Shown here: positions 4,271 to 64,000 of the stretch, piece after piece
How positions within the stretch are numbered: position 1 is the stretch's first letter
Layout: each line of letters starts with the position of its first letter
Assembly: GCA_016713865.1 (NCBI GenBank)
Contig: JADJOG010000047.1
Coordinates: 26,729 to 90,728 of the forward strand
Length of the DNA stretch: 64,000 nt
Source: Flavobacteriales bacterium
Lineage (GTDB): Bacteria; Bacteroidota; Bacteroidia; Flavobacteriales_F; PHOS-HE28
Reading direction: 5' to 3'
The notes under the pieces: model-generated
Database searches by the model: none
What the model was told of the DNA's origin: nothing
What the model saw: only the letters and a program-made list of their open reading frames with translations
Position numbers and translations under genes: made by a program

Positions 4271-5143
4271 ATGATTCGTCAATTCACTCTTCTGTTTCTC
4301 CTGCTCGTAGCAGGTCGCGTTGCCGCATTGGCCCAGGACACCCTGAACGTGATGGACGAGATGGGCCGCAAGCAGGGCTACTGGAAGGTGCTGGCCCCGA
4401 AAGCGGAGAAGCCCGAGTACAACGATGGCCAACTGATCGAGGAAGGCCGCTACAGCAATAGCAAGCGCGTGGGCACATGGAAGCGCTATTGGCCCAACGG
4501 CAATGTGATGAGCGAGATCAACTACCAGATGGGTCGTCCGAAGGGCGACTACCGCACCTACTACCCCACAGGGAAAGTGGAGGAGCAGGGTACCTGGGAT
4601 CTGGATCGCAACACCGGCAAATTCCAGCGTTGGCACCCGAATGGGAAGCTCGCGCAGGATTTCATCTTCAACGCTTATGGCGTGCGCGATGGCGAGCAGA
4701 AGTACTACCACGAGAACGGACAGCTTGCCGTGGCGGTGAACGTTGAAGAAGGCAAGGAAGACGGAACATTGAAGCGATACGACCCCAATGGCCAGGTCAC
4801 GCAAGTGGCGCAGTTCAACGATGGCGTGATCAACGAAGCCAACAGCAAGTGGATCAAGCCCGTACCCAAGGCCGACGATGTGAAGGTGGACCCGAAGGCC
4901 GAGGCCGCGCCTGCCCCAGCACCTACCGAGCGCACCAACGCCATGGTATTCCGCGAGAACGGCTACAACACGCTCTACGACAAGCAGCTCCGCCTCTCGC
5001 AGCAGGGCGAATTCAAGGATGGCCGCCTGTGGGACGGCAAGCGCTACGAGTACGATAGCGATGGCCTCTTGAAACGGATCAAAATCTTCAAGCAGGGCCG
5101 CTACTTGGGCGATGCCGTCATCACCGAGGAGGACCTGAAGTAG
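4271..5143 (+). CDS. MORN-repeat / YwqK-family lipoprotein
   Basis: Signal peptide MIRQFTLLFLLLVAGRVAALAQ. Repeated Y(W)PNG...EG.W MORN-like units. Confidence 0.65.
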   Translation: MIRQFTLLFLLLVAGRVAALAQDTLNVMDEMGRKQGYWKVLAPKAEKPEYNDGQLIEEGRYSNSKRVGTWKRYWPNGNVMSEINYQMGRPKGDYRTYYPTGKVEEQGTWDLDRNTGKFQRWHPNGKLAQDFIFNAYGVRDGEQKYYHENGQLAVAVNVEEGKEDGTLKRYDPNGQVTQVAQFNDGVINEANSKWIKPVPKADDVKVDPKAEAAPAPAPTERTNAMVFRENGYNTLYDKQLRLSQQGEFKDGRLWDGKRYEYDSDGLLKRIKIFKQGRYLGDAVITEEDLK

Positions 5144-31017: not shown

Positions 31018-32781
31018 ATGCCCGCCCACCTCGCCAAGCGCTGGCGCCTGAAGCCCGCACCGGAACCCGACGCCGTGGCCGAACTCACCTACGAGCGCTG
31101 CCCGGAATCTGCGGCCACCATCCTGGCCCAACGCGGAATCCGCGACAAGCGCATGGCCGCGCACTTCTTCCGCCCGGCGCTCGACGACCTGCACGACCCT
31201 TTCCTGATGGCCGGCATGCAAGAGGCGGTTGAACGCATCGAGCGCGCCTTGGGCGACAACGAGCGCATGATGGTGTATGGCGACTACGACGTGGATGGCA
31301 CCACCGCCGTATCGCTCGTGTATGGTTCCCTCGCGCGCTTCACCGGCAACCTGCTGTTCTACATCCCGGATCGATATGCCGAAGGCTACGGCATCTCGTT
31401 CCAAGGCATCGATAAGGCCAAGGAAGAAGGCATCACGCTCATCATCGCGCTGGATTGCGGCATCAAGTCCATCGACAAGGTGGCCTATGCCAAGGAGCGC
31501 GGCATCGACTTCATCATTTGCGACCACCACTTGCCGGGCGAGCAACTGCCCGATGCCGTGGCCGTGCTCGACCCCAAGCGCCCCGATTGCCCCTATCCGT
31601 TCAAGGAGCTCAGTGGCTGCGGCATCGGCTTCAAGCTGATGCAAGGCTTCGCGCAGCGCAACAACATCGCCTTCGATGATCTGCTATCGTCGCTGGATCT
31701 GGTGGCCATCAGCACGGCATGCGACATCGTGCCGGTGACCGGTGAGAACCGCATCCTCAGCCATTTCGGCTTGAAGGAGCTGAACGATACCCCACGGCCA
31801 GGTGTGCGCGCCATCCTCGGCATGGCCAACGTGAAGAAGCGCCTCGGCGTGGGCGACCTCGTGTTCAGCATCGGTCCGCGCATCAATGCCGCCGGGCGCA
31901 TCGAGCATGGGCGCAAAGCGGTGGAACTGCTGCTGGCGCACGAGGATCAGCAAGCAGCAGCGGTAGCCACCTTGATCGACGGCAACAACAGCCATCGGCA
32001 GGAGCTCGACCGCAACATGACGGAGGAAGCACTCGCGCACATCGCCGATGATGCTTGGCAGCAAGGCTCTTGGAGCACGGTGGTGTTCAAGCCCGAATGG
32101 CACAAGGGCGTGGTGGGCATCGTGGCCTCGCGCCTGGTAGAGCGGCATTACAAGCCCACCGTGGTGCTCACCGCCAGCAATGGCAAGGCCGTGGGCAGCG
32201 CGCGCAGCGTGAAGGGCTTCGATGTGCATGAGGCCATCAGCGCGTGCAGCGATCTGCTGGATCAGTACGGCGGCCACATGTATGCGGCGGGGCTCACCAT
32301 GCCAGTGGAGAATGTGGAAGCCTTCCGCCAGCGATTCGATGAAGCTGTTCGCGCCACCATCACCGCTGAGCAGCGCGTGCCGGAGGAAGAGGTGGACATC
32401 GAGCTCCGCCTTGATCGGATCGACGAGGGCCTGTTGCGCGTGATCAAGCACATGGCGCCGTATGGTCCAGGAAACATGAGGCCCGTCTTCCTCGCACGCG
32501 GTGTTGTTGATACGGGCAGCGCGCGCCTCGTGGGCGAGCACCATCTGAAGATGCGGCTCGCTCACCCCGACGACCTGCGCCGATCCTTCGATGCCATTGC
32601 CTTTAAGCAAGCCGCTTGGCTCGATCGCGTGAAGAGCGGCCAGCCCTTCAGCGTGCTTTACGCGATCGAAGAGCATGAATGGCAGGGCCGCGTGAGCACG
32701 CAGCTCAATATCAAGGACATCAAATCGGAAGTGGATGGCGTGCTCTTCGGGGAAGAACGCATGGCCGCTGTGAACCAATGA
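31018..32781 (+). CDS. recJ: single-stranded-DNA-specific exonuclease RecJ
   Basis: DHH motifs (VYGDYDVDGTTA, IICDHH) and a DHHA1 domain. Length 587 aa. Confidence 0.9.
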   Translation: MPAHLAKRWRLKPAPEPDAVAELTYERCPESAATILAQRGIRDKRMAAHFFRPALDDLHDPFLMAGMQEAVERIERALGDNERMMVYGDYDVDGTTAVSLVYGSLARFTGNLLFYIPDRYAEGYGISFQGIDKAKEEGITLIIALDCGIKSIDKVAYAKERGIDFIICDHHLPGEQLPDAVAVLDPKRPDCPYPFKELSGCGIGFKLMQGFAQRNNIAFDDLLSSLDLVAISTACDIVPVTGENRILSHFGLKELNDTPRPGVRAILGMANVKKRLGVGDLVFSIGPRINAAGRIEHGRKAVELLLAHEDQQAAAVATLIDGNNSHRQELDRNMTEEALAHIADDAWQQGSWSTVVFKPEWHKGVVGIVASRLVERHYKPTVVLTASNGKAVGSARSVKGFDVHEAISACSDLLDQYGGHMYAAGLTMPVENVEAFRQRFDEAVRATITAEQRVPEEEVDIELRLDRIDEGLLRVIKHMAPYGPGNMRPVFLARGVVDTGSARLVGEHHLKMRLAHPDDLRRSFDAIAFKQAAWLDRVKSGQPFSVLYAIEEHEWQGRVSTQLNIKDIKSEVDGVLFGEERMAAVNQ

Positions 32782-34349: not shown

Positions 34350-34795
34350 TGCTCGACCTCGGCGATGAGCATTTCATGCGGCAGGCCCTGAAGGAGGCTG
34401 AGCAGGCCTTCAAGCAGGACGAGGTGCCCATCGGTGCGGTAGTGGTAGGCGGCGGACGCATCATCGCTCGCGCGCACAACCTCACCGAGAAGCTGAACGA
34501 TGTCACGGCGCATGCCGAGATGCAGGCGATTACCGCTGCTGCAGAGGCCATTGGTGGAAAGTACTTGAGGGAATGCACGCTGTATGTGACCGTGGAGCCT
34601 TGCCCCATGTGCGCCGGTGCGCTGCATTGGGCGCAAGTGGGGCGCATCGTGTTCGGCGCCTTCGACGAGAAGAGCGGCTACCGGCGCATCGGCGGCGTGC
34701 TGCTGCACCCCAAGACCCAGGGGACCGGCGGAGTGCTGGAGCCGGAGTGCGCTGATCTGATGAAGGCCTTCTTCAAGCGGAAGCGCGCGTTGTAA
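34346..34795 (+). CDS. tadA: tRNA adenosine(34) deaminase
   Basis: HAEMQAI...TLYVTVEPCPMCAGAL zinc-binding motifs. Length 149 aa. Confidence 0.85.
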   Translation: MMLDLGDEHFMRQALKEAEQAFKQDEVPIGAVVVGGGRIIARAHNLTEKLNDVTAHAEMQAITAAAEAIGGKYLRECTLYVTVEPCPMCAGALHWAQVGRIVFGAFDEKSGYRRIGGVLLHPKTQGTGGVLEPECADLMKAFFKRKRAL

Positions 34796-34842
34796 GCAGC
34801 GCCATCCCGCTTTATGACGTCAATCGCACGAAACGCACCCCT

Positions 34843-62072: not shown

Positions 62073-63104
62073 ATGAGCCAGCCCTCCGTACTCCTGATCT
62101 ACACCGGCGGCACCATTGGCATGTGGGCCGATCCACGCACCGGCGCGTTGCGCCCCATGGACCTGGAGCACCTTGAGGAGCAGGTGCCGGAGTTGGAGCG
62201 TGTCGGCGTGAAGCTGTCGAGCGTGGCCTTCGATACGCCCATCGACAGCAGCGACATGCGACCCGCCGATTGGGTCCGCATCGCGCGCATCATCGGCAAC
62301 AACTACCACAAGCACGATGGCTTCGTTGTGCTGCATGGCAGCGATACCATGGCCTATACCGCCAGCGCGCTCAGCTTCCTGCTGGAGAACCTCGCGAAGC
62401 CCGTGATCCTCACCGGATCGCAATTGCCTATTGGCACCATCCGGACCGATGCCAAGGAGAACCTGATCACCGCTATCGAGATCGCTGCCGCCAAGGATGA
62501 AGCGGGCCGCGCCATGGTTCCTGAAGTGGCCGTGTATTTCGAGTACCGGCTCCTGCGCGGCAATCGCACCGTGAAAGTGCATGCCGAACGCTTCGAGGCC
62601 TTCCGCTCGCCCAATTGGCCAGCACTGGCCGAAGCGGGCGTACACCTGCGCTACGACCATGGTGCGATCCTGCAGCACCCAACCAAGCCGCTCGTGGTGC
62701 ATGAACAGCTCGAAGCACAAGTGGGCGTGGTGCGGCTCTTCCCCGGCATCTCCGGCGAATGGGTGCGACATGCGCTCTCTACTCCTGGGCTGCGCGCGGC
62801 CATCCTCACCAGCTTCGGCAGCGGCAACGGCCCAACGGATAATGGCTTCGTCGCAGCGCTGCGTGAGGCCCGCGAGCGCGGCATCCACCTCTTGAATGTG
62901 ACCCAATGTGTGGGCGGCCGTGTGGAGCAGGGGCGTTATGTGACCAGCCGTGCGTTCGTGGAGATGGGCGTGATCCCCTGCGCCGACATGACGGTAGAGG
63001 CCACTCTGGCCAAGGCCATGTTCCTATTGGCGGCTGATCAGCCAGCGGGGGCCTTCGCCCAACGAATGGCAGCACCGATCGCCGGTGAGATGACGTTGGG
63101 TTAA
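62073..63104 (+). CDS. ansA: L-asparaginase, type I
   Basis: LIYTGGTIGM and HGSDTMAYTASALSF motifs. Length 343 aa. Confidence 0.85.
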   Translation: MSQPSVLLIYTGGTIGMWADPRTGALRPMDLEHLEEQVPELERVGVKLSSVAFDTPIDSSDMRPADWVRIARIIGNNYHKHDGFVVLHGSDTMAYTASALSFLLENLAKPVILTGSQLPIGTIRTDAKENLITAIEIAAAKDEAGRAMVPEVAVYFEYRLLRGNRTVKVHAERFEAFRSPNWPALAEAGVHLRYDHGAILQHPTKPLVVHEQLEAQVGVVRLFPGISGEWVRHALSTPGLRAAILTSFGSGNGPTDNGFVAALREARERGIHLLNVTQCVGGRVEQGRYVTSRAFVEMGVIPCADMTVEATLAKAMFLLAADQPAGAFAQRMAAPIAGEMTLG

Positions 63105-63216
63105 CGTGCTAGTTGATTCACTTCTCCCGCTGCTCGCCGCGCCTCTTGCCGGAAAGACCTTTTGCTACCTTGGCCGCCCTTCGGAAGGCACTGGAACCGC
63201 CTTTCGATGCATAAAC

Positions 63217-63306
63217 GGAGAGATGGCCGAGTGGTTGAAGGCGCGCGCCTGGAAAGTGCGTTTACCTGAAAGGGTAACGGGGGTTCGAATCCCTCTCTCT
63301 CCGCCA
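63217..63306 (+). tRNA. tRNA-Ser (anticodon GGA), with encoded CCA
   Basis: Manual fold. Acceptor stem GGAGAGA/TCTCTCC (7 of 7 pairs). Anticodon stem CGCGC/GTGCG with loop CTGGAAA. Long variable arm. T-loop GTTCGAATC. Discriminator G followed by CCA. Confidence 0.85.
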
Positions 63307-63387
63307 TTGCAGATCGGCGGCGGAGCCGCCGCATCATCTGCGACGGCGGCGAGCGAAGCTTGTTTCGGCGAGCCGACGATGCAGATG

Positions 63388-63745
63388 ATGCAAGGCCCGA
63401 AGGGCCGTCGATCTGCAATGAAGCCCTCCCTAACGGGAAAGGCCGACGAAGAAGGCCAATCCCTTTCCCTTCATAGCAGCGAGCCGTCCCGGCGCAGGCC
63501 GGGATTGCTCGTGCGAGCGGAAAGCGCGTTCAGCCGGAGGTCCGAAGGACCGACGCCATGGAATGAAGCCCTCCCCCAACGGGAAAGGCCGACGAAGGAG
63601 GCCAATCCCGTTGATTCAAGATCCTTTGGCCGAGCTTGCTCGAGCGAGCAGACAGCGCAGATGAACCAAGGCCCGAAGGGCCGTCGATCTGCAATGAAGC
63701 CCTCCCCAACGGGAAAGGCTGACGAAGGAGGCCAAAACCCTAGGA
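63388..63745. repeat. three degenerate copies of a 60-90 nt structured repeat (core AATGAAGCCCTCCCyAACGGGAAAGGCyGACGAAGrAGGCCAA, two copies preceded by CAGATGAwsCAAGGCCCGAAGGGCCGTCGATCTGC)
   Basis: Direct sequence comparison of 63388-63475, 63557-63615 and 63655-63745. Each unit has an internal hairpin GGCCCgaaGGGCC. CGATCTGCAATG is the inverted complement of CATTGCAGATCG at the tRNA 3' end. Confidence 0.5.
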
Positions 63746-63913
63746 ATAAGGCCGGTCATTCCTTAATCAGGAACGCACCAAATGGTGGCCAACTGCCTCC
63801 GTTGCCTAAAGCTCTCGTGACCGATGCGGCGAACGTCCGCTGCTAACTACCATCTTTGACCGCTCATTCCGGAACCAACACCGACAACAACCCCCACACG
63901 CAACCTTTCAAAC

Positions 63914-64000
63914 ATGGTACGCAAGCTCTTGACAATCTGCTTCGCCGGCCTCTTGGGCGTTAGCATGCTCAGCACGCCCGTGATGGCGCAGGAAGCCCCG
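63914..64000 (+). CDS. start of a secreted protein gene (partial, runs off the window)
   Basis: ATG followed by MVRKLLTICFAGLLGVSMLSTPVMAQEAP, a signal-peptide-like sequence. Confidence 0.4.
   Translation, partial: MVRKLLTICFAGLLGVSMLSTPVMAQEAP

Follow-up and report, generated by a model that had tools for sequence, protein, structure and literature searches.

The window, a stretch of 64,000 nucleotides (nt) on contig JADJOG010000047.1 of a Flavobacteriales genome (GCA_016713865.1, positions 26,729 to 90,728 of the forward strand), carries near its end a tRNA-Ser gene with the anticodon GGA. About 600 nt without a credible gene follow this tRNA, and they hold three related units of the element described here, all on the strand of the tRNA. 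A preliminary description of the same DNA had noticed the gene-free stretch and the three units, and both are borne out. It gave the units a size of 60–90 nt; they really measure about 110–165 nt, and only the first is complete. A complete unit is predicted to fold into a four-way junction of helices P1 to P4, followed by a C-rich strand and a terminal hairpin (hairpin A). The features of the locus are as follows.

63166–63173, + strand: promoter-like box TACCTTGG upstream of the tRNA, a conserved box of the Bacteroidota -7 type (TAnnTTTG-like)
63217–63306, + strand: tRNA-Ser(GGA), CCA encoded (ARAGORN; Rfam tRNA model, 57.4 bits)
63305–63463, + strand: unit 1, the sole structurally intact unit (inverted repeats I1 and I2; minimum free energy fold; covariance model R1, 174 bits; covariation counts)
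63305–63316 paired with 63409–63420, + strand: P1 of unit 1
63317–63329, + strand: P2 of unit 1
63331–63391, + strand: P3 of unit 1
63394–63406, + strand: P4 of unit 1
63421–63434, + strand: C-rich linker of unit 1
63435–63463, + strand: T-arm-like hairpin A of unit 1
63464–63481, + strand: tail of unit 1, a decayed look-alike of the tRNA 3' end (alignment score 8)
63470–63609, + strand: unit 2, L-type; 5' domain degenerate, 3' module intact (R1, 67 bits, model positions 1–164)
63539–63551, + strand: P4 of unit 2 (GGTCCGAAGGACC)
63554–63565, + strand: 3' arm of P1 of unit 2
63566–63580, + strand: linker of unit 2
63581–63609, + strand: hairpin A of unit 2
63633–63741, + strand: unit 3, 5'-truncated, beginning in the P3 apex (direct repeat D1; covariance model, 23 bits, 3' domain only)
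63670–63682, + strand: P4 of unit 3
63685–63696, + strand: 3' arm of P1 of unit 3
63697–63710, + strand: linker of unit 3
63711–63741, + strand: hairpin A of unit 3, outer stem damaged (AAAACCC)
63851–63858, + strand: promoter-like box CATCTTTG of the exbB-type gene (conserved CATCTTTGACC)
63914–64000, + strand: start of a MotA/ExbB-family gene (by synteny), cut by the window end and outside the element

No credible open reading frame (ORF) lies between the tRNA (63307) and the next ATG (63914). The sole long ORF, 63106–63846, crosses the tRNA, and insertions or deletions of 1–2 nt between the units break the frame (CCCT/CCCC/CCCCC; GACGAAGG versus GACCGAAGG). The entire stretch folds far better than shuffled sequence on both strands (z about −6.5). 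The conserved core and the hairpin reported in the preliminary description are real. The 35-nt core has two exact copies and a third with a 1-nt insertion (0 expected from shuffles), and the hairpin GGyCCGAAGGrCC is observed 3 times versus 0.06 expected; its middle copy, GGTCC...GGACC, is a compensatory variant. The 12-mer CGATCTGCAATG had been described as the inverted complement of the sequence abutting the tRNA, and this is confirmed. It occurs in units 1 and 3 (63409–63420 and 63685–63696) and is complementary to 63305–63316, a segment that starts with the CA of the tRNA's CCA and overlaps it, while unit 2 holds CGCCATGGAATG at this place. The inverted arms reach 17 nt at 94% complementarity (pairs I2 and I3). 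Unit 3 constitutes direct repeat D1, with 87% identity to 63357–63459. Neither the core nor the element has a further copy elsewhere in the 64-kb window. Very weak R1 matches (11–13 bits, E 0.2–0.7) at 34643–34808 (+), 31501–31640 (−) and 4826–4900 (+) are most likely due to chance. Tandem Repeats Finder reports nothing on the array because the units are irregular.

The element is not confined to this genome. The comparison set comprises about 20 related loci, numbered L001 and onward. They come from a pattern scan of species-representative genomes (5 loci), a pattern scan of metagenome contigs (7 real loci and 2 chance matches), look-ups of homologues of the neighbouring asparaginase (about a dozen further loci) and look-ups of homologues of a GWxTD-domain protein (3 further loci). 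At all loci the carriers are uncultured, G+C-rich Flavobacteriales. Whether it came from the two unbiased pattern scans or from synteny, each copy directly follows the 3' end of a tRNA-Ser gene and shares its strand. The host tRNA has the anticodon GGA at loci syntenic with the window, TGA in L007 and L033, and CGA in L010, and the gene neighbourhoods differ among the GGA, TGA and CGA loci. Loci of the window type conserve the order ansA, tRNA, array, exbB. Here the MotA/ExbB identity of the gene at 63914 is assigned by synteny, with PF01618 found in the syntenic genes of L015, L016, L017 and L024. Which genes stand downstream varies by locus: exbB, a putative DinB-like ORF (named from its sequence), a GWxTD gene, or opposite-strand genes. 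These genes have a promoter-like box of their own. In L023 (3571–3813) and in L028–L030 (minus strand), tRNA and element are inverted jointly relative to ansA. Inversion of this block relative to its neighbours is seen not just at the GGA locus; the TGA locus shows it too (L007 versus L033). The preliminary description had tied its proposals to further copies elsewhere and to an island boundary downstream: many more copies are found in other genomes and at other tRNA-Ser genes, while no island boundary is.

The unit is predicted to be a conserved, previously uncatalogued RNA-like structure of about 160 nt. The 13 distinct complete units measure 154–164 nt, counted from the tRNA's final GCC. 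All of them fold individually to one shape, though the sequences of P1–P4 are not shared between loci. P1 is the closing helix of 11–14 bp and starts 0–3 nt past the discriminator, in the window inside the CCA. P2 and P4 are short hairpins. P3 is a long rod with G.A-rich or purine-rich internal loops and a conserved apex of the form GAGCC-stem-loop-stem-GGCGA. The 3' arm of P1 is followed by the conserved C-rich strand GAAGCCCUCCCC and by hairpin A, which has the form GGGA-AA-stem-loop-stem-AA-UCCC. The earlier proposal of an array of small structured RNAs is well supported as far as structure is concerned: the fold is kept across loci with unlike helix sequences and with extensive compensatory change.

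Covariance model R1, built from nine units, recovers the units of the TGA, CGA and inverted loci at 60–88 bits. In a 17-unit alignment fitted to the model structure, 95.3% of cells are standard pairs, versus 27–42% when the partners are slid by 1–3 columns. Double-sided changes occur in 39 of the 52 pairs, and none of 500 shuffles reaches the observed values. Covariation is present in P1, P2, P3 and P4 alike, and the independent single-sequence folds agree with it. The inner stem of hairpin A is compensatory between lineages as well (GGCC/GGCC, GGC/GCC, GCCCG/CGGGC and GCC/GGC). The fifth pair of P1 (63309 with 63416) is G-C in the window and a G.G or G.A mismatch in L001, L013 and L017; this recurrent non-canonical pair may matter for the fold. 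Two additional interactions were considered and rejected. An H-type pseudoknot between CCCUCC and GGAGG in the loop of hairpin A ('helix B') is suggested by one double change in L001 (CCUUCC/GGAAGG). It was dropped as a general feature: it is broken in the window's intact unit (GAAGAAGG) and absent in the L023, L029 and L033 lineages, and by reasoning it would overlap the inner stem of hairpin A, with linkers of 2–4 nt too short for both helices. A triple helix of the C-rich strand is ruled out on strand polarity, by reasoning only.

The least decayed copies show how a unit ends: in a direct repeat of 17–18 nt of the tRNA 3' end. Behind the single unit of L023 stands AATCCCTCTCTCTCCGC, 17 nt that directly repeat the tRNA sequence from T-loop to 3' end. 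L029 and L030 have two complete units with the 18-nt repeat AATCCCTCTCTCTCCGCC between them, and L019 has a 70-nt remnant ending in CCCTCTTCTCTCCGCCATTG. The L023 and L029 tails are identical to the tRNA end at 18 of 23 positions, with a score of 14 versus a null 99th percentile of 9, and their perfect 17–18-nt copy stands at the position that matches the tail of window unit 1. This tail, read from the AATCCC that closes hairpin A, is AATCCCTTTCCCTTCATAGC (63458–63477) against AATCCCTCTCTCTCCGCCA at the tRNA 3' end; its score is 8, while the null 95th percentile is 7 and the 99th is 9. Taken together, the likeness of tail to tRNA end is clear in L023, L029 and L033, marginal in L016 and window unit 1, and unrecognisable elsewhere. 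Hairpin A itself copies the flanks of the T-arm (tRNA AACGGGGGUUCGAAUCCC; unit AACGGGAAAGG...CCAAUCCC), and in its original form it continues into a copy of the 3' strand of the tRNA acceptor.

Copy number varies between loci. The element is absent from L020, L024 and L031 and left as a remnant in L019. It is present in one copy in L005, L023 and L028, in two copies in L016 and L029, and in three or more in the window, L001, L004 and L015. An N run masks part of the array in L003 (3619–3728), where the copy number is at least 2, and the short-read contigs L002, L004, L011 and L014 start inside an array, which suggests that the repeats break assemblies. L028 and L029 have a common AnsA protein, and their flanks match at all 501 of the 501 positions aligned; what sets them apart is exactly one 163-nt unit bounded by the 18-nt repeat. 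Presence also varies within a genome: GCA_020853935.1 lacks the element at its GGA locus (L020) and has it at its TGA locus (L033/L034). The TGA locus of JAHCIA01 (L031) has no element, while Logan contig L017, with an identical AnsA protein, has one unit at the GGA locus; JAHCIA01's own GGA locus is outside the comparison, and L017 stands in for it by the shared AnsA.

As a rule, the 5' half of a downstream unit is truncated or degenerate, in ways that vary with the lineage. The 3' arm of P3, P4, the 3' arm of P1, the C-rich strand and hairpin A are kept in every downstream unit. Two sequence types of unit coexist, and L002 has one of each. Window unit 2 is of the type that L001 and L012 have as their first unit, with 84–87% identity to those units; with unit 1 of the window it shares only an 18-nt match. 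Unit 1 (63303–63463) is 97% identical to L016 4240–4400, whereas identity is 78% in the adjacent ansA coding DNA and 66–73% in the spacers. Either constraint is very strong, or genomes have recently exchanged the cassette.

A TAnnTT(T/G/C)G box with GCCGCCC following it is conserved upstream of all tRNA-Ser loci examined, with all three anticodons, at about 12 to 45 nt from the tRNA. By its sequence it looks like a shared promoter element and resembles the Bacteroidota -7 consensus. The only other such box between ansA and exbB is that at 63851–63858, and there is none inside the array. Its sequence CATCTTTGACC is kept about 55 nt ahead of the ATG in L001, L003, L005, L015 and L016. A clean intrinsic terminator stands behind the repeat of L023; a simple scan finds none after the array of the window. 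The pattern of boxes and the L023 terminator suggest one transcript of tRNA plus array and a separate transcript of exbB.

The closest known arrangement is that of the RtT RNA (RF00391; rttR) of the E. coli tyrT operon. Like the element, it directly follows the 3' end of a tRNA gene, shares the strand of that gene and forms tandem units of similar size (178 nt versus about 110–165 nt here), three of them after tyrV and three in the window. In E. coli K-12 the Rfam RtT model matches once between tyrT and tyrV and then three times in tandem at 178-nt spacing after tyrV, with scores of 133–137 bits (gathering score 45 bits). Each E. coli unit ends in AATCCTTCCCCCACCACCA, the T-loop-to-CCA segment of tRNA-Tyr, as the element ends in a copy running from the T-loop (AATCC...) to the 3' end. 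In both cases this copy is paired into a hairpin within the unit. The layout of tandem units after a tRNA that end in a copy of its end is found in both, perfect in L023 and L029 and marginal in window unit 1. According to a passage of PMC4986893 that cites Bosl and Kersten 1991, RtT is released from the tRNA operon transcript during processing; passages there and in bioRxiv 10.1101/2024.07.17.603846 describe a possible role in the stringent response as still unresolved. There are also differences. The host is tRNA-Tyr in Gammaproteobacteria and tRNA-Ser in Bacteroidota, and the four-way junction of the element is well supported, while an E. coli RtT unit folds no better than shuffled sequence (z = −0.9). 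Homology was considered and rejected, as covariance models are negative both ways: Rfam RtT finds nothing here, even at E up to 10 (window 62900–64000) or up to 1 (L007, L010, L023, L029 and L033), and R1 scores 8 bits on RtT. The element and RtT are analogues and not detectable homologues. An Rfam search at permissive thresholds of the window and five other loci matches only the tRNA, and the check that the preliminary description had proposed gives no family for the units. Weak matches to sX4 (a Xanthomonas small RNA, sRNA) and Plastid-psbl-rps4 at 63204–63363 and 63253–63303 of the window, and likewise in L007, L010 and L033, stem from the tRNA-Ser sequence itself or its antisense; those models evidently include a tRNA-Ser.

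An arginine-rich frame (…NGKGRRRRPIP…) runs through the units (window 63360–63476 and 63563–63664, +) and recalls the 'protamine-like' tpr ORF annotated within the first E. coli RtT repeat. In most copies it is unlinked to the conserved ATG, it is gone in short-loop lineages, and it is probably a by-product of the GGCCGACGAAGGAGGCC sequence. A protein-coding role, be it of this frame or of other small ORFs, is rejected: no frame is kept, and frames shift between copies.

We interpret the stretch as a structured RNA element that is linked to tRNA-Ser genes and repeated in tandem, an RtT-like tRNA-trailer RNA with one intact and two decaying units, and give this interpretation a probability of roughly 0.6. 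The array would be transcribed from the tRNA promoter as the 3' trailer of the tRNA, its RNA would be released by ordinary tRNA 3'-end processing, and the released RNA would be stable owing to its fold. Recombination or slippage, acting on the repeated tRNA 3' ends and from unit to unit, would make the copy number go up and down, and surplus units would then decay from their 5' side. P4, the 3' arm of P1, the C-rich strand and the T-arm-like hairpin, which are invariably kept, are likeliest to be the active module, and they would bind a protein or another RNA. A functional RNA from a tRNA trailer has a precedent in 3'ETS-leuZ, a sponge RNA that tRNA processing releases from the trailer of a tRNA operon. 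That RNA is short, single-copy and Hfq-dependent, and it base-pairs with sRNAs; its likeness to the element lies in the route of origin proposed here.

Several points weigh against this interpretation. The alignment used for covariation was fitted to the model structure, which inflates the pair counts. Hairpin A and the C-rich strand are near-invariant in the clade of the window, and the pairing there is a model prediction. The strand signal of wobble pairs is weak, with 15 G-U versus 9 A-C cells, and the orientation is assigned mainly because of the constant linkage to tRNA and the L023 terminator. Co-transcription, processing and stability of the array RNA are all inferred from sequence. The element is absent from some tRNA-Ser loci of genomes that bear it elsewhere (L020 versus L033; the L017 type versus L031) and is therefore dispensable for the tRNA. 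Finally, the direct repeats, the patchy distribution and unit types that are discordant with the flanking genes also fit a mobile DNA cassette.

Such a cassette is the rival that survives best. The unit would be a miniature non-autonomous integrative element, similar to a cis-mobilizable element (CIME), with its integrase supplied in trans, tRNA ends as attL and attR, and arrays formed by accretion. Its target would be the T-loop-to-3'-end segment of tRNA-Ser, and the unit would represent the remains or the minimal form of the element. The repeat of this segment that flanks the unit in L023 and L029, with remnants in L019, L033, L016 and window unit 1, agrees with this, and so do the occurrence at three tRNA-Ser paralogues having the segment in common, the precise presence/absence polymorphism and the patchy presence per locus and genome. 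Near-identical units despite about 20% diverged flanks and arrays of mixed unit types point the same way. NBU2-type elements of Bacteroides integrate at tRNA-Ser 3' ends, and CIMEs and NBU2 have tRNA 3'-end direct repeats, tandem accretion and presence/absence polymorphism in common with the element. However, here there is no recombinase or cargo, the unit has about 160 bp, and its helices are kept by compensatory change. An integrase, for which the preliminary description had suggested looking, is not found near the locus, and no integrase, excisionase or cargo gene is present at any locus; the neighbours are conserved housekeeping genes. Pfam scans of the ORFs around L007 and L011 give no recombinase. 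The lone gene of the Phage_integrase family that was seen is XerC/D-like, lies about 3 kb off at the TGA locus, and is present with or without the element. Nothing similar is found in phage records, plasmid records or viral contigs. One mark of a genomic island, an integrase beside the tRNA with cargo between repeats, is lacking. Another, a far boundary at which the tRNA 3' end is directly repeated, is seen in L023, L029 and L019 and marginally in the window (score 8). An attP site needs no four helices kept by compensatory change, and a 163-bp circle would be a poor recombination substrate. Many internal units lack the 5' part, which unequal recombination and decay fit better than serial integration, and E. 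coli RtT shows the same tRNA-end repeat without being an integrative element. On balance we consider an integrative cassette unlikely. The earlier reading of the stretch as a scar of integration or excision holds to the extent of the tRNA-end repeats in L023 and L029 and of the precise gain or loss of a unit, and fails on the island and the integrase; within the window, a repeat of the tRNA end can be made out only marginally.

A more speculative version keeps the structured RNA and lets it propagate itself. The 3' end of tRNA-Ser(UCN) would be the landing pad of a structured-RNA cassette, which would move among paralogues and genomes via recombination of that segment or via an RNA intermediate with a tRNA-like 3' end. 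Through its T-arm mimic, the cassette would engage the machinery of tRNA maturation or some other factor that binds tRNA. We regard this as quite unlikely. If true, the cassette would be a selfish or domesticated 'tRNA-trailer parasite' and not a passive repeat.

The closeness of the unit to the tRNA raises the question of a cis-acting device for tRNA maturation, either self-cleaving or guiding a nuclease, that defines or delays the 3' end of tRNA-Ser, or whose mimics of T-stem and acceptor compete with the tRNA strands. At all loci P1 starts within or right after the CCA or the discriminator. Two likenesses to the tRNA, both from our reading of the sequences, fit as well: that of the C-rich strand GAAGCCCUC to the tRNA's GAAUCCCUC, and that of hairpin A, a copy of the T-arm flanks AACGGG...AAUCCC. 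Yet no Rfam ribozyme family is matched, tRNA-Ser genes of sister lineages and at other loci of the carrier genomes do without the element, and duplicated 3' modules distant from the tRNA are hard to explain in this way, so such a device is improbable.

Comparative methods cannot separate hairpins of single-stranded DNA from those of RNA, as the attC sites exemplify (PMC5737381). The weak asymmetry between G-U and A-C and the visible decay of window units 2 and 3 would suit a folded single-stranded DNA site of the attC kind, or a functionless by-product of unequal crossing-over. Both are very improbable. No integron integrase and no cassettes are present, boxes of the AAC/GTT type are unconserved, and the element never departs from the orientation of the tRNA. 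Conservation of the intact unit far exceeds that of the adjacent coding DNA, and its fold is kept at three paralogous loci, which is unexpected for junk.

A leader or riboswitch of the downstream exbB-exbD (TonB-system) operon, suggested by the position of the array upstream of exbB on the same strand at GGA loci, has next to nothing in its favour, as the array holds no constant place in the 5' untranslated region of one gene family: other loci have unrelated or opposite-strand genes downstream, in L023 and L028–L030 the element heads away from all genes and runs into a terminator that faces ansA, exbB retains its own conserved promoter-like box downstream of the array, and in L024 and L019 exbB occurs without the element.

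Other identities were rejected outright. The preliminary description had already set aside an array of clustered regularly interspaced short palindromic repeats (CRISPR), correctly, as there are no spacers and no cas genes; the units abut, their spacing is irregular (130–146 nt), Tandem Repeats Finder is blank, and the single CRISPR-DR match is a chance 24-nt hairpin (E = 0.22). A miniature inverted-repeat transposable element or a repetitive extragenic palindromic repeat does not fit either: the rest of the 64-kb window is free of copies, all copies stand at tRNA-Ser genes, and the terminal inverted repeat (P1) is not conserved and varies between loci by compensatory changes. Type III antitoxin arrays, retrons and attC are rejected for lack of partner genes and defining motifs. 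ToxI, of the type III toxin–antitoxin systems, and CRISPR arrays resemble the element in being tandem small structured RNA units; here, no toxin or cas gene is adjacent, there are no spacers, and the units are three to four times longer.

Repeats that trail a tRNA and carry a copy of its 3' end became known with the E. coli tyrT operon, and the RtT product is still without established function. The same layout in a distant phylum without detectable homology to RtT suggests a recurring solution and not an oddity of E. coli. The element is also a better-defined RNA to work on than RtT: its length is constant, its four helices covary, part of it looks like the T-arm, and nature supplies both copy-number variants and, in sister lineages, knock-outs. 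Bacteroidota, a phylum with few characterised non-coding RNAs, gain a candidate RNA family. Should the cassette really travel from one tRNA-Ser gene to another, it would represent a very small mobile unit of a new kind.

The loci without the element have features of their own. In L020 (3738–4571), and also in L021 and L022, tRNA-Ser(GGA) has neither the element nor an encoded CCA. Behind it, a terminator-like hairpin and a gene with a faint match to the Bro-N domain (phage-type) take the place of the exbB-exbD operon, and the tRNA-Ser locus is therefore a site of gene turnover. In L031 (2345–2435), the TGA tRNA without the element is followed by two terminator-like hairpins. The second of these (GCCGAGCGTGCTCGGGC within AAGCCCCGC...GCGGGGCTTTC) resembles the conserved P3 apex of the element.

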